DNA of 58,431 nt, taken from assembly GCA_001776785.1 (NCBI GenBank), contig MFDF01000023.1, positions 1 to 58,431 on the forward strand, given 5' to 3'. Position numbers and translations under genes: made by a program. Below the pieces are notes generated by a model, which saw nothing but the letters and a program-made list of their open reading frames with translations, had not been told where the DNA came from and searched no databases. Shown one piece after another: positions 28,673 through 51,189 of this stretch (position 1 is its first letter; each line of letters opens with the position of its first letter). This stretch comes from Candidatus Daviesbacteria bacterium RIFCSPHIGHO2_12_FULL_37_16. GTDB lineage: Bacteria > Patescibacteriota > Microgenomatia > Daviesbacterales > UBA10151.

Positions 28673-29452
28673 CTAATTAAAGTTTAAAATCATAGGTAAA
28701 TGATCTGAAATTAAGATATTTTGAGGTACATTAAAATTATGAACTTTTATGTCTTTTGATACAAGAGTATAGTCTGCAAAACGCTGTTTGCCATAAATAT
28801 TTAAATTGCTCCTGGTTTTTCTTATTTTGTATTTTTTAATTAAGTTTACTAGTCCGGAATCTTCCAGCATTTTAATGCTTTTAGTTGAAGGCATTAAGTT
28901 AAAATCTCCAACTAAAATCTTCTTTCCATTAAAATTATTTAATACCCCCAACGTTTTTTTAGATTGTTTAATGCGGGCAGCTGTGTCAAGCTTTGTACCA
29001 GGAAAAGTAATTCCATGAAGATTGATAACCATATAATCTCTTCCATTTTTTCTGAATTTCAAAATTTGAATATTTTTTGGAAGTATAGATCGTCCTTTAT
29101 TATCTAATGTAATTTCACTCTTTTTCCTAAATACAAATAGATCTTTTGCATTTTTTTCTGTAATAATATTTTTTACAAAAATAGCTGGACCTACTTCCAA
29201 TGGAAAATTTGTTGGAGAATCAAATAAAAAATTTTCATGGGAAGGATGAAAATAACAGGTATAATTTTTCAAACAATTTTTTATATAAACTAAATTATTG
29301 TATTTGTATCCTTCTTTTGAAACTCCATCATTTTCTGAATTTATGACTTCCTGGAAACAAAAAATATCCGTGTCTTTAGACTGGTCATTAATGAAATTTA
29401 GTAGGGGAGTAAGATCATGGCCTCCCCAAATGTTTAGTGAAATAAGTTTCAT
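28673..29452 (-). CDS. Endonuclease/exonuclease/phosphatase (EEP) family protein
   Basis: 259 aa. MKLISLNIWGG...FCFQEV...GDFN...SDHLP pattern. Confidence 0.65.
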   Translation of the reverse strand: MKLISLNIWGGHDLTPLLNFINDQSKDTDIFCFQEVINSENDGVSKEGYKYNNLVYIKNCLKNYTCYFHPSHENFLFDSPTNFPLEVGPAIFVKNIITEKNAKDLFVFRKKSEITLDNKGRSILPKNIQILKFRKNGRDYMVINLHGITFPGTKLDTAARIKQSKKTLGVLNNFNGKKILVGDFNLMPSTKSIKMLEDSGLVNLIKKYKIRKTRSNLNIYGKQRFADYTLVSKDIKVHNFNVPQNILISDHLPMILNFN

Positions 29453-30837
29453 AAATTAGAATTGGTTTTCTTTAAAATTATCAGATCCTGGTTTTGGTAT
29501 TCAATTCCCCAGTATGATGAGGAAATTAACGAGTTAACCCTACTAACAATCTCCTCTGGAGTAGTTGGATAAGAAGATAGTGAAGGTTTTACTATAATGT
29601 ATCTTGAATCATAGATCTCTGGAAATAAATAAATTCTTTGCCTGTTTGCAAGGTAAGGTACAAACGGGTTTTGAGCTGAAACTGAAGCGTTGGCAGGTAT
29701 TATCTGGAGAGATTGGTATATTTGTGAATTATTTTGGATGTTGGATGGTTTTATATAAAATACTCTCCAGATTAAACTGTTTGGTGACAGGCCACTATAA
29801 AAAAGGAAAAAAATCAAAAGCAGGGCAACAGCTATTATTGGAATTCTAAATTTTGATATTGCGAAAACAGTACTTATTGCCAGAAATGGTTCCAGATTTG
29901 CATTATAGTGCCAAATAGTGGTCCAAAAATGAGTTGCAGTTGAACTAAATCTTAAATAGAGAGATGGAAAAACTGTAAACCAGCTTAAAGGGTTAAGTAT
30001 AGGAAGGTATGCGTATTGTTTATATAAATTATCAAAAGTATCTTGCTTTATTGGGGAATTGAAAAAATGGTTTAAAAAAATGCCGGGTCTTGAAAAAAAT
30101 AGAACAATTAATTCTAATGGATTTGTTAAGGGAAGTGCAGATGTTGAAATATAACCCTGTTCAGCCCCTTTCCAAAAAAAAGGCATAATCATAAATTTCA
30201 CTATCAAAAAGTAAAAAAAGGAGACGATTAGTGTAGCAATGCCTGATCTTGTTTGTTTTAAAAAAATTTTATAAATTCCTAAGCCAAAGATTAATATTGA
30301 AGTATCTTCTTTTGTCAGAAGGCTTAAGATTAAGCTTACCCAATAGATATTCCATTTCTTGAAATACCAGCCATAAAGTAAAAATGATAATGGCAAAACT
30401 GAAATTGTAGCCAAATGAAAATCAAAATTTATTGCAGAAGTAATACCTACAGAAGTTAAGTAGCTTAAAGTTATCAGTAAGCTCAAAAGACTGCTTTTTA
30501 ACTTGTCTTGAGTAATTAAATAGATTGGAATAGAGCTTAAGCTAACAAAAAGTGCCTGCAAAATTAGTAAAGTTTCAGATGATGGGAAGAATCTATATAA
30601 AGGTGCAAGAAGTACTAGAGCAATCCCAAAATGGTCTCCCAGAACTAGCATATGTTTGAGGGTGCTAAAAGGTGTTAAACCCTGACTATAGAGATAAATT
30701 GCCTGGGTGTGTATCCCCAGATCAAATGCATTACTTTGGAATGATTGGTGTTTGCTGATTGAAATGGTTGTAAATATGACAAAAAATAGAATTGCTAGTA
30801 GCAAGGGAGTAAGAAAATTATTTTTGGTTAAGTTCAC
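29449..30837 (-). CDS. DUF2079-like polytopic membrane protein (putative glycosyltransferase)
   Basis: 462 aa with many TM segments. The N-terminal loop SNAFDLGIHTQAIY resembles the DUF2079 signature. Confidence 0.6.
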   Translation of the reverse strand: MNLTKNNFLTPLLLAILFFVIFTTISISKHQSFQSNAFDLGIHTQAIYLYSQGLTPFSTLKHMLVLGDHFGIALVLLAPLYRFFPSSETLLILQALFVSLSSIPIYLITQDKLKSSLLSLLITLSYLTSVGITSAINFDFHLATISVLPLSFLLYGWYFKKWNIYWVSLILSLLTKEDTSILIFGLGIYKIFLKQTRSGIATLIVSFFYFLIVKFMIMPFFWKGAEQGYISTSALPLTNPLELIVLFFSRPGIFLNHFFNSPIKQDTFDNLYKQYAYLPILNPLSWFTVFPSLYLRFSSTATHFWTTIWHYNANLEPFLAISTVFAISKFRIPIIAVALLLIFFLFYSGLSPNSLIWRVFYIKPSNIQNNSQIYQSLQIIPANASVSAQNPFVPYLANRQRIYLFPEIYDSRYIIVKPSLSSYPTTPEEIVSRVNSLISSSYWGIEYQNQDLIILKKTNSNL

Positions 30838-43327: not shown

Positions 43328-43638
43328 TCGCCTAGGAAGAGTATAAGCCAGATTCTGTTGGGAAAGTTTTATCTGAGTCTGCTTTCCCTGCGATAATTTA
43401 TCTAATGCTCCTCATTTCAACAAATGTACGAGCAGTACTGTTGGTTCTAGGATTGCAGCGGGGAGGATTGCCCGTTTCATTCACCACATCCGCCTGCTGG
43501 CGGACTGTGACTCGTTTCTGTTGCTCTATACTTGCGGTTACCCGAGCCAGCTTACGCTGGCCACCCTACTCTGCGCTGTCTGGACTTTCCTGACCCAATG
43601 ATTTCTCAAAGGACCTAATCGCCCATCTTCCCAGGCTT
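43328..43638 (-). ncRNA. rnpB: RNase P RNA, bacterial type A, compact (~311 nt)
   Basis: On the minus strand: P4 strands AGGAAAGUCCA and ACAGAAUCUGGCUUAU, GCAACAGAAA (J11/12-like), GGUGGCCAGCGUAAGCUGGC. P1 pairs GCCUGGGAAGA (5') with UCUUCCUAGGC (3'). Confidence 0.9.
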
Positions 43639-49224: not shown

Positions 49225-49253
49225 TTGACATACTTTGAGATAAAGAGTATAAT
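49225..49253 (+). promoter_or_regulatory. Consensus sigma70 promoter P1
   Basis: TTGACA (49225-30), 17 nt spacer, TATAAT (49248-53). Confidence 0.55.
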
Positions 49254-49269
49254 TTTTATACATTAGCTG

Positions 49270-49298
49270 TTGACAAGAAACTTTTGAGAAAATAGAAT
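49270..49298 (+). promoter_or_regulatory. Near-consensus sigma70 promoter P2
   Basis: TTGACA (49270-75), 17 nt spacer, TAGAAT (49293-98). The mini-ORF ATG lies 11 nt after the -10 box. Confidence 0.55.
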
Positions 49299-49309
49299 AT
49301 ATTAGTAGT

Positions 49310-49417
49310 ATGAGCCAAATTGATTTAAGTTTTATAATTTGTTTAGTTATTTTCTTTACCCTTCTTAGATGGGTGCTCATTATTATGGGCACAAGGAAGG
49401 GAGGTCAATTTAGCTAA
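49310..49417 (+). CDS. Leaderless 35-aa hydrophobic mini-ORF (candidate leader peptide or small membrane peptide)
   Basis: MSQIDLSFIICLVIFFTLLRWVLIIMGTRKGGQFS*. Its last codons cover the GGGAGGTC antiterminator arm. Confidence 0.4.
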   Translation: MSQIDLSFIICLVIFFTLLRWVLIIMGTRKGGQFS

Positions 49418-49468
49418 ACATAGCTAAATCTCAAAAGTTAGGAGACCTCCCGAATGGGAGGTTTTTTT
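49399..49468 (+). promoter_or_regulatory. Antiterminator/terminator switch 1
   Basis: GGGAGGTC (49399-406) is complementary to GACCTCCC (49444-51). The terminator is ACCTCCC-gaat-GGGAGGT plus T7 (49445-68). An intervening hairpin is TTTAGCTA-aaca-TAGCTAAA (49409-28). Confidence 0.55.
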
Positions 49469-50281
49469 ATACAAAAAATGGAAAGAGTTACAAGTATTTA
49501 TTTACATGAAAGAGGTGTGTTAGTAGATTTGCCTCCTCAACTTGCTCAGAATATTTTTTCTGATCCAGATCAGGGGGAGTTTTATATGGGTGAGGTAGAA
49601 AAACAGAGATTGAAAGCTATATTAAAAGACCCCATTTTAAAGAAACGGTATCCTGATTATTCAGATGGAGATAGGTATATGGATGGAGTTTCTCCCCAAT
49701 GGAGAGATAGACTTATGGGTTGGTCTCATGAGATGACGGAGGCAATCAAAGATGCTTGTTTGGATATAGGAATAGATAGATTTGGGGTTATCTTGCATGG
49801 ATCTGTTGCTAAAAACTTGGCTAAACAAAGGACTGATGCTGATCCTTCAAATATTGATTTAGCTGTAATAGGTGATATATCTGTTGATGAAGGTGAGGAA
49901 ATTAAAAATATTATAAGAGGAGCTCGGGAGAGAATAACAACTAGAATTAGAGTTGCTGAAAGTTGTCGATGTGTAGGTTTAAGGTGCGTTTGTGCATCTG
50001 AAGTTAGTCTTTCTAAGCCTTCAAATCCTATTGAGAGGGTGGGTGTGTTAGTTCAGGATATAGAAACATTAAGGAAAAACGATTATTATCAAGCAAGAAT
50101 GTTTATGTCTTCTTGTGCAAGGGTAATGTATGATCCCTTTGATTTGTGGAAAGCTTTAGAATTGGAAGCAGTTCCAAGCATGGCTAAGTTTAATATGACC
50201 CGAGCAGAACGAAAAAGAGTCATGGTTGAAGAAAACAGACAAACAGTGCCAGGAGTTTTGATACCAGTAGGGTCGTTTTAA
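49454..50281 (+). CDS. Pol-beta-superfamily nucleotidyltransferase-like protein (275 aa)
   Basis: Central HGSVAKNLAKQRTDADPSNIDLAVIGD resembles the hG[GS]-x(n)-D-h-D-h NTase motif. Start is either 49454 (AGGAG SD 9 nt upstream, ATG in the terminator loop) or 49478. Confidence 0.6.
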   Translation: MGGFFIQKMERVTSIYLHERGVLVDLPPQLAQNIFSDPDQGEFYMGEVEKQRLKAILKDPILKKRYPDYSDGDRYMDGVSPQWRDRLMGWSHEMTEAIKDACLDIGIDRFGVILHGSVAKNLAKQRTDADPSNIDLAVIGDISVDEGEEIKNIIRGARERITTRIRVAESCRCVGLRCVCASEVSLSKPSNPIERVGVLVQDIETLRKNDYYQARMFMSSCARVMYDPFDLWKALELEAVPSMAKFNMTRAERKRVMVEENRQTVPGVLIPVGSF

Positions 50282-50797: not shown

Positions 50798-50826
50798 TTG
50801 ACAATTGGGCTCAGAATTGTTATTAT
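50798..50826 (+). promoter_or_regulatory. Near-consensus sigma70 promoter
   Basis: TTGACA (50798-803), 17 nt spacer, TATTAT (50821-26). The mini-ORF ATG lies 9 nt after the -10 box. Confidence 0.55.
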
Positions 50827-50834
50827 TTTTGTTA

Positions 50835-50900
50835 ATGTTAAGAAATTGGAGCAAATTTTTCTTTAGTTACTTTACTTTCCAAAGGAGGGAGGGAGTTTGA
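50835..50900 (+). CDS. Leaderless 21-aa Phe-rich mini-ORF (candidate leader peptide)
   Basis: MLRNWSKFFFSYFTFQRREGV*. Five Phe including FFF. Its last codons cover the GGGAGG antiterminator arm. Confidence 0.4.
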   Translation: MLRNWSKFFFSYFTFQRREGV

Positions 50901-50959
50901 TGTCTTAGACTAATAAAGCCATAAGACTCAAATAGGCCTCCCAAAAGGGAGGTTTTTTT
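50887..50959 (+). promoter_or_regulatory. Antiterminator/terminator switch 2
   Basis: GGGAGG (50887-92) is complementary to CCTCCC (50937-42). The terminator is CCTCCC-aaaa-GGGAGG plus T7 (50937-59). An intervening hairpin is GTCTTA...TAAGAC (50902-27). Confidence 0.55.
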
Positions 50960-50988
50960 ATGCCTAAAAAGAGAGGAGGTGTTGAGTA

Positions 50989-51189
50989 GTGTCTGATAAA
51001 GAACCAAGTGGTATTGCAAAACTTGATATTGCCCAGTCTGTTGCTCGGGGAATAGTCCCAGAAGGAGTTGCTCCTAAAATTGTTGTTGATATGATAAAAC
51101 CAATTCAAGTTTCTGAAGGAAGACCATTAAGAAGAAGAATTGCAGAACTTAAAAGACCCTTTAGAGATTTGAACAAGTGGGAAAAATAA
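50989..51189 (+). CDS. Hypothetical protein (66 aa)
   Basis: GTG start preceded by GAGAGGAGGTG SD. The start overlaps the TAG stop of a 9-codon uORF (ATG 50960, MPKKRGGVE*). Confidence 0.5.
   Translation: MSDKEPSGIAKLDIAQSVARGIVPEGVAPKIVVDMIKPIQVSEGRPLRRRIAELKRPFRDLNKWEK

Follow-up and report, generated by a model that had tools for sequence, protein, structure and literature searches.

The question raised by one short unit in the 58,431-nt contig of Candidatus Daviesbacteria bacterium RIFCSPHIGHO2_12_FULL_37_16 (the whole of which is called the window, and to which all coordinates refer) is why a promoter should be followed by a phenylalanine-rich open reading frame (ORF) of 21 codons, then by a terminator, and only then by a gene for a 66-aa protein. 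This unit spans 50798–51189 on the + strand and is named here module 2; a sister module lies upstream of it. An earlier note on this DNA had proposed that it is a leader-peptide attenuator of transcription, sensing either Phe-tRNA or drug-induced stalling of the ribosome. The Phe-sensing part of that proposal was supported by the mini-ORFs found throughout a family of similar leaders, by the Phe codons kept among them and by both of the alternative pairings on which such a switch depends. On the sequence evidence, module 2 is probably a ribosome-mediated attenuator that reports the supply of charged tRNA-Phe.

The promoter at 50798–50826 contains TTGACA (50798–803) and TATTAT (50821–826) separated by 17 nt, as had been noted before, together with an extended −10 TG at 50818–19. 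It is an 11/12 match and is among the three best in a 10-kb scan. The leader ORF (50835–50900, TGA at 50898–900) encodes MLRNWSKFFFSYFTFQRREGV, and the five Phe residues in 21 codons, including FFF, were confirmed. Its ATG at 50835 is indeed found after the −10 box without a Shine-Dalgarno sequence (SD), although 8 nt separate the box from the A and not 9 as counted earlier. Because the start lies 8 nt past the −10 box and lacks an SD, the mRNA would be leaderless or would carry a 5′ leader of 0–1 nt. The codon score of this ORF (−0.16) is unlike that of a normal gene. The regulatory Phe codons are clustered at 50856–50879, as TTT TTC TTT (F8–F10), TAC (Y12), TTT (F13) and TTC (F15).

The RNA that follows can be divided into four segments. 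Segment 1 (CUUUCC, 50875–50880) pairs with segment 2 in the minimum free energy structure, and this 1:2 helix of −7.8 kcal/mol corresponds to an anti-antiterminator or pause hairpin. Segment 2 (GGAGGGAGGGAG, 50884–50895, core GGGAGG at 50887–92) is SD-like, lies in the last leader codons and pairs with segment 1 or segment 3. Segment 3 (AGGCCUCCC, 50934–50942, with CCTCCC at 50937–42) is anti-SD-like; it is the 5′ arm when the terminator forms and the 3′ arm when the antiterminator does. Segment 4 with its U-tract (50947–50959) provides GGGAGG (50947–52) as the 3′ arm of the terminator and T7 (50953–59), and its position 7 nt ahead of AUG 50960 also suits an SD. A middle hairpin of ~12–13 bp separates segments 2 and 3 and includes the leader stop; its core GTCTTA/TAAGAC at 50902–27 is lengthened by folding to 50895–50933, and it stacks under the 2:3 helix. 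The GGGAGG, the hairpin and the CCTCCC-AAAA-GGGAGG-T7 at 50937–59 listed in the earlier note were all found in place.

The terminator, located between the leader ORF and the gene, has a 9-bp stem (AGGCCUCCC/GGGAGGUUU) with AAAA separating CCTCCC from GGGAGG, followed by U7, and its energy is −14.4 kcal/mol. It is excluded by the antiterminator, in which GGGAGG at 50887–92 pairs with CCUCCC at 50937–42. The terminated fold (1:2, middle hairpin and 3:4) was calculated at −34.5 kcal/mol and the fold with 2:3 enforced at −32.7 kcal/mol. Until segment 4 has been transcribed, the stretch from segment 2 to the end of segment 3 folds by itself to −22.9 kcal/mol, owing to the stacking of the 6-bp GGGAGG/CCUCCC helix on the middle hairpin of 12 bp. 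Furthermore, the terminator motif CCTCCC-N4-GGGAGGTTTT has exactly two + strand matches in 58 kb, at 49446 in the sister module and at 50937, whereas 0.07 were expected (both strands, up to two mismatches) and no shuffle equalled the observed count. Elsewhere in the window, terminator-like hairpins are built on unrelated stems. The T-rich block TTTAGTTAYTTT..TT.CC, offered earlier as further shared evidence between the two modules, was not significant alone because 12 of 100 shuffles gave at least two matches.

These elements suggest the following course of events. Transcription would begin with the AUG at 50835 or one nucleotide ahead of it, and a ribosome would start the 21-codon leader at once. 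With plentiful Phe-tRNA it would reach the UGA at 50898 and cover segment 2, the 3:4 terminator would form and the polymerase would halt in U7; with no translation, helices 1:2 and 3:4 would form and termination would result too. When Phe-tRNA is scarce, the ribosome would stall in the FFF..F.F cluster and mask segment 1 but not segment 2; the helix that the latter would then form with segment 3, on top of the middle hairpin, would block the terminator. Read-through would leave segment 4 single-stranded and able to act as the SD for AUG 50960. Translation would then pass through a 9-codon upstream ORF (uORF) and be coupled by reinitiation to the 66-aa gene, whose GTG is overlapped by the uORF stop codon. 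The geometry of the locus agrees with this scheme. The end of F13 is 13 nt from segment 2, the leader stop codon is 11 nt past the first base of segment 2, and with ribosome footprint sizes of general knowledge a stalled ribosome would mask segment 1 and not segment 2, and a terminating ribosome would mask segment 2.

If this reading is correct, loci of the same design should be recognizable elsewhere, and the earlier note had itself held that an absence of mini-ORFs at other loci would count against it. Metagenome contigs were scanned for GGGAGG-N30-60-CCTCCC-N3-6-GGGAGGTTTTT; the matches listed comprised at least 120 loci, mostly of low GC content, and the statistics given here refer to the 96 low-GC loci among the matches listed. 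A promoter of at least 10/12 was present within 180 nt upstream in 53% of them, compared with 6% of control windows. In 44 of the 49 loci with a promoter the start codon is 6–12 nt after the −10 box (mode 7 nt), which implies leaderless mRNAs. Leader ORFs with a strong nearby promoter have 14–36 codons, and their stop lies at a median of 16 nt past the first base of the first GGGAGG. Whatever the amino-acid class, the run ends at a median of 13 nt (interquartile range 11–16) before segment 2, the very distance seen for F13 in module 2, so that segment 1 would be hidden under a stalled ribosome with segment 2 still accessible. The leader peptides vary and their tails differ; the run and the switch segments are constant. 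The segment 2 hexamer is read in all three frames (26/40/29 in low-GC loci), so it is the RNA that is constrained, not the peptide. Neither the sequence nor the length of the middle hairpin is constant.

Both alternative pairings exceeded their controls across the family, and the failure of conservation that the earlier note had named as refuting was not seen. Past the hexamers, the 2:3 helix gains on average 1.29 Watson-Crick pairs, compared with 0.81 after partners were shuffled between loci (z = 6), and the extensions, which differ in sequence between loci, reach 8 extra Watson-Crick pairs (10 with G·U). The 1:2 duplex, taken from the 27 nt upstream of segment 2, has a mean energy of −8.0 kcal/mol against −6.3 kcal/mol for shuffled sequence (p = 2e-10), whereas the sequence further upstream pairs with segment 2 at a family mean of only −2.9 kcal/mol. 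The switch of the family is made of two SD-like (GGGAGG) and two anti-SD-like (CCUCC) segments, with the 3′ arm of the terminator reused as an SD.

This reuse is seen in the spacing of the starts that follow. In 53 of the 96 loci the second GGGAGG is followed at exactly 7 nt by an ATG or GTG, which opens the main ORF in 12 loci and a short uORF ending at or overlapping the main start in 29 (commonest overlap ATGA). The arm therefore doubles as an SD, and it is usable only when the terminator is unformed. In module 2 the corresponding uORF (MPKKRGGVE, 50960–50989, + strand) ends in a TAG that overlaps the GTG of the 66-aa gene (TAGTG), as the earlier note had described; the termination-reinitiation coupling suggested there is supported by the recurrence in the family of starts 7 nt past the terminator arm and of overlapping uORFs. 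We also observed mini-uORFs of 2–9 codons located 0–40 nt past the U-tract (e.g., L015, L038, L041, L055, L101, L103, and L117), with the shape RTGG, A-rich stretch, ATGA and with the uORF stop overlapping the main start, which look like a conserved reinitiation device.

The mini-ORFs of the other loci carry runs of many kinds (FFFF, CCC, MMM, TTTT, SSS, YYYY, mixtures of W, Y and H, and stretches of I, L and V), and these runs fit the pathway of the downstream enzyme. The leaders with F/Y runs precede DAHP synthase (4 loci), chorismate mutase-prephenate dehydratase (PheA) and a class I/II aminotransferase. CCC runs precede cysteine-synthase-like PALP genes (3 loci), SSS runs a SerA/SerB fusion and a HAD phosphatase, TT runs an aspartokinase-like amino-acid kinase, and M runs a SAM hydroxide adenosyltransferase and an aminotransferase. 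Such a match between run and pathway for F/Y, C, S, T and M is the hallmark of specific aminoacyl-tRNA sensing in classical attenuation. The WYY run was found before genes of the Asp/Glu racemase family. These Trp/Tyr leaders (...NYWYYGK...; L028, L054, L086, and L101) repeatedly precede such genes, and a homologous racemase gene in L068 stands behind a leader without a run of this type. His/Tyr leaders (...YHYH...; L065 and L125) precede homologous proteins of ~975 aa for which look-ups gave no Pfam-like annotation. Textbook pathways explain neither of these two pairings. About half of the family leaders precede ORFans, and ten proteins behind F-type leaders (58–571 aa, mostly small ORFans) gave no Pfam match above the curated cut-off.

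The membership of module 2 in this family was assessed with a covariance model (R1) built from 56 family loci with the window excluded. Module 2 scored 66.8 bits (E = 2e-11) and the sister module 53.5 bits (E = 8e-9), so the earlier view that both belong to one family is borne out. A third match in the window, at 29352–29456 (− strand) with 20 bits, was rejected as it has no terminator, and no other exceeded 20 bits. The leaders nearest to module 2 are L021 and L115. The former encodes MLSRNFAFFNFYFTFRKEGGI, its DNA is 61% identical to module 2 from the −35 box to the ATG after the terminator, and it is followed by a 7-codon uORF overlapping the start of a 74-aa ORFan. The latter encodes ...WYFYFMFTFRKEGG... 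and precedes DAHP synthase. The Phe codons, whose loss in homologous leaders would have spoken against Phe sensing according to the earlier note, are kept in both, and F-runs are kept in L022 and others. No similarity was found between the 66-aa ORFan and the L021 ORFan, so that conservation is higher in the leader than in the gene behind it.

Few of the low-GC loci carry names, and these are Roizmanbacteria, Gottesmanbacteria and ‘Patescibacteria group’; the loci with GC near 0.48 are pheA leaders of the gammaproteobacterium Rheinheimera (L020, L062, and L084). None of 20 family loci tested was covered by an Rfam family. There is about an even chance that module 2 belongs to a large family of leaderless, amino-acid-specific attenuators which is the main amino-acid sensor of Microgenomates-type bacteria of the candidate phyla radiation (CPR), such as Daviesbacteria, Roizmanbacteria and Gottesmanbacteria, and in which about half of the members control tiny, fast-evolving ORFans. 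A T-box and a SAM-I/IV riboswitch were also found on contigs bearing family leaders (L022, 6967–7251 and L023, 1283–1427), which indicates that these organisms combine leader-peptide, tRNA-binding and metabolite-binding leaders.

Other explanations of module 2 were weighed against Phe-tRNA sensing. The same architecture could answer to another signal, namely translation stress or antibiotic stalling as in the erm, cat and ABC-F leaders, with the Phe codons incidental in T-rich sequence. Such a signal would suit a 66-aa gene without a Phe link, a family in which about half of the leaders control ORFans, and a sister gene that is nucleotidyltransferase-like, a fold shared by some drug-modifying enzymes, albeit with weak Pfam matches (E = 0.05–0.1). 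It is nevertheless an unlikely explanation, since the run amino acid fits the downstream pathway for five classes of leader and the leaders closest to module 2 keep the Phe/Tyr cluster, one of them controlling DAHP synthase. Moreover, neither window gene matched any resistance or defence family in Pfam, NCBIfam or PADLOC (and, for the 267-aa sister protein only, in the PDB), which leaves the drug-stalling alternative of the earlier note without support. The region from promoter to terminator might also be a gene in its own right, giving a small RNA of ~125 nt or a 21-aa peptide acting in trans, and the 66-aa gene would then be reached by leaky read-through. A strong promoter and a strong terminator would indeed yield an abundant short transcript, and trans functions of attenuator RNAs and leader peptides are reported for Sinorhizobium trpL (PMC6614838, PMC7298713). 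However, a hexamer read in three frames and variable peptide tails are not features of a stand-alone product, the codon usage of the leader ORF is not that of a gene, and an SD-spaced start past the terminator, together with uORF coupling, connects the unit with the gene that follows. We consider this very unlikely as the sole function; a trans role alongside attenuation could exist.

The remaining explanation, in which the hairpin is no more than an intrinsic terminator near a mini-ORF that arose by chance, or part of a riboswitch or protein-binding leader that works without translation, is highly improbable. Terminators of the form CCTCCC-N4-GGGAGG-U do occur elsewhere, for example after the PIG-L gene in L006, the contig of the closest relative. 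That example, however, proved to be a Met leader (2310–2425, + strand) encoding MMSMIMQTSTKEVDW, which R1 finds with 51.7 bits. It adjoins the PIG-L gene (84% identical to the one in the window) and precedes a SAM hydroxide adenosyltransferase (SAM_HAT) gene; its segment 2 is GGAGGT, without the exact hexamer, and its terminator is CCTCCC-GAAT-GGGAGG-U8. In the window the upstream neighbour is divergent, and no + strand transcript is therefore expected for the hairpin to terminate. No riboswitch or T-box was found at the module 2 locus at the Rfam gathering threshold or at E ≤ 10, the Phe_leader family apart, and no Rfam family reached its gathering score there. The variable sequence and length of the middle hairpin mean that a conserved ligand pocket is absent. 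The regularities of the family ORFs cannot be due to chance, and the ordinary-terminator explanation is largely refuted.

Several points weigh against the Phe-tRNA attenuator itself. The transcription start, stalling, termination and Phe response of module 2 are deduced from sequence, as is the translatability of a leaderless start in a CPR bacterium. The family loci were ascertained by three hexamers and many are mutually related, so that the family statistics overstate independence. Only F8–F13 fit the geometry, since stalling at F15 would place the ribosome over segment 2 as well. The 2:3 helix of module 2 consists of the 6-bp hexamer only, without extension into the flanks. Nothing visible connects the 66-aa ORFan with phenylalanine, and no orthologous copy of the exact locus was found for a conservation test.

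The regulated gene (50989–51189, + strand) begins with GTG and is preceded by a strong SD (GAGGAGGTG, 50973–50981) located within the uORF. Its codon score is gene-like, being 0.40 in frame compared with −0.60 and −1.04 in the other frames and 0.295 ± 0.10 in real genes. An AlphaFold (AF2) model gave three helices at low confidence (pLDDT 66). The protein has no family match in Pfam, NCBIfam or PADLOC, and PHROGs gave two weak matches only, both to families of unknown function. No homologues were found outside the species, and within it identical copies alone were recovered; two candidates from an exhaustive HMMER search (P0125 and P0126, E = 1e-9 and 1e-8) were rejected as repeat-driven artefacts, being highly repetitive eukaryotic proteins.

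The unit is flanked by a divergent HIT gene upstream and a convergent PIG-L gene downstream, so that it comprises the promoter, leader, terminator, uORF and 66-aa gene alone; the gap from U7 to the gene is too short for a second promoter. Contigs of the same species are identical, the sole differences, in L003, being an assembly gap of Ns. Relatives whose PIG-L is 84%, 78% and 64% identical carry other genes at the position of the 66-aa gene, and a scan of genome contigs for PIG-L gave a 30%-identical gene of Pedobacter as the sole match. The L006 Met leader and SAM_HAT beside PIG-L indicate that the same chromosomal site hosts different leader-cargo pairs. On the contig whose PIG-L is 78% identical (L009, 3270–3590, − strand), a 125-aa ORFan occupies the position. 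It is preceded by ~300 nt of GC-rich, apparently structured sequence unlike the GGGAGG/CCUCCC leaders, with a terminator-like hairpin CCCTTGT...ACAAGGG-T5 just before its SD. Elsewhere in the window, at 43328–43634 (− strand), RNase P RNA (class A) was detected with 105.6 bits against an Rfam threshold of 100; large parts of the model have no counterpart in the alignment, pointing to a reduced form of this RNA.

The sister module (49270–49468, + strand) is built from a promoter, a 35-codon hydrophobic leader ORF (49310–49417), GGGAGG (49399–404), a hairpin and CCTCCC-GAAT-GGGAGG-U7, and its 2:3 helix has 8 bp. The two modules had been called paralogous. That holds at the family level, where R1 scores both, but not for the leader peptides, which are unrelated, and pairwise alignment of the modules was uninformative outside the terminator. 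Upstream of the sister leader there are tandem promoters, TTGACA-17-TATAAT (12/12) at 49225–53 and TTGACA-17-TAGAAT (11/12) at 49270–98. Only the second has its −10 box close to the leader ATG at 49310, with a distance of 11 nt; transcripts from the first would begin with an untranslated region of ~50 nt lacking an SD. The peptide MSQIDLSFIICLVIFFTLLRWVLIIMGTRKGGQFS resembles a transmembrane helix and is akin to the Ile/Leu/Val-rich leaders of the family (L053, L097, and L108), in which a further hairpin separates segment 1 from segment 2. The sister module could be a branched-chain amino-acid sensor or could encode a small membrane peptide. The gene behind it (49478–50281) encodes the nucleotidyltransferase-like ORFan of 267/275 aa. 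Apart from its weak Pfam matches, the 267-aa protein gave weak NCBIfam matches and weak PHROGs matches to families of unknown function; nothing was found in a PDB sequence search or in PADLOC. It has one homologue family at 41% identity (P0124), likewise adjoining a HIT gene (L011–L013), and the region upstream of P0124 showed a short hairpin only and no leader ORF.

CPR bacteria, or Patescibacteria, make up a large share of bacterial diversity and are uncultivated, with minimal biosynthesis; to our knowledge, almost nothing is known of their gene regulation. If the attenuator reading holds across the family, these bacteria would read at least eight kinds of tRNA charging (Phe/Tyr, Cys, Met, Thr, Ser, Ile/Leu/Val, Trp/Tyr, and His-like) through leaderless mini-ORFs, and the genes behind the leaders would form a list of what the cells induce when a given amino acid runs short. 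That list would hold many tiny ORFans beyond the reach of homology annotation, the 66-aa gene among them, and would imply an unrecognized amino-acid-starvation response in reduced, host-dependent bacteria. The design itself would be compact and portable, joining transcription attenuation with control of translation initiation in ~125 nt.

Among known systems, the closest are the Phe leaders of E. coli. Against the Rfam model Phe_leader (RF01859), module 2 scored 34.9 bits (E = 0.0016, full-length) and the sister module 31.3 bits, both below the gathering threshold of 55 bits. In pheL-pheA a pyrimidine-rich leader pairs with a G-rich segment, and pause (1:2), antiterminator (2:3) and terminator (3:4) helices are formed (PMC3082878). 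Module 2 resembles pheL-pheA and pheM-pheST in its short ORF with a Phe run, in the three helices and in a CCUCCC...GGGAGG-type stem with a U-tract. It differs from them in that its leader has no SD and is predicted to be leaderless, it occurs in a CPR bacterium, its terminator arm doubles as the SD of a uORF, and its target is a 66-aa ORFan and not pheA or pheST.

Work on Deinococcus deserti has predicted leader peptides that are leaderless (PMC4007540), and leaderless polycysteine short ORFs have been shown in mycobacteria (bioRxiv 10.1101/834739). They are alike in having a 5′-AUG at the transcription start and a cognate amino-acid run before biosynthesis or aminoacyl-tRNA synthetase genes. 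They belong to other phyla, and no common sequence or switch design is reported; the four-segment switch of SD-like and anti-SD-like sequences and the SD within the terminator are not described in the consulted portions of the two sources. The T-box likewise makes a cis-acting choice between terminator and antiterminator tuned to the tRNA charging of one amino acid, but binds the uncharged tRNA directly without translation. A full-text literature search for leader peptides or attenuators in the candidate phyla radiation, Patescibacteria or Microgenomates gave nothing, and broader searches gave nothing relevant. There seems to be no earlier account of such leaders in this lineage, of the leaderless design mimicking SD and anti-SD, of an SD within the terminator or of so many ORFan targets.

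The E. coli trp attenuator in the Yanofsky model shares the four-segment logic, in which the position of the ribosome selects 2:3 or 3:4. Compared with trp, module 2 has a tiny 1:2 hairpin of 6 bp and a separate stable hairpin between segments 2 and 3, its segments 2 and 4 share an identical hexamer, and its segments 1 and 3 are both anti-SD-like. Judged by analogy, the mechanism of module 2 is of a known kind, with the logic of the pheL-pheA and trp attenuators.

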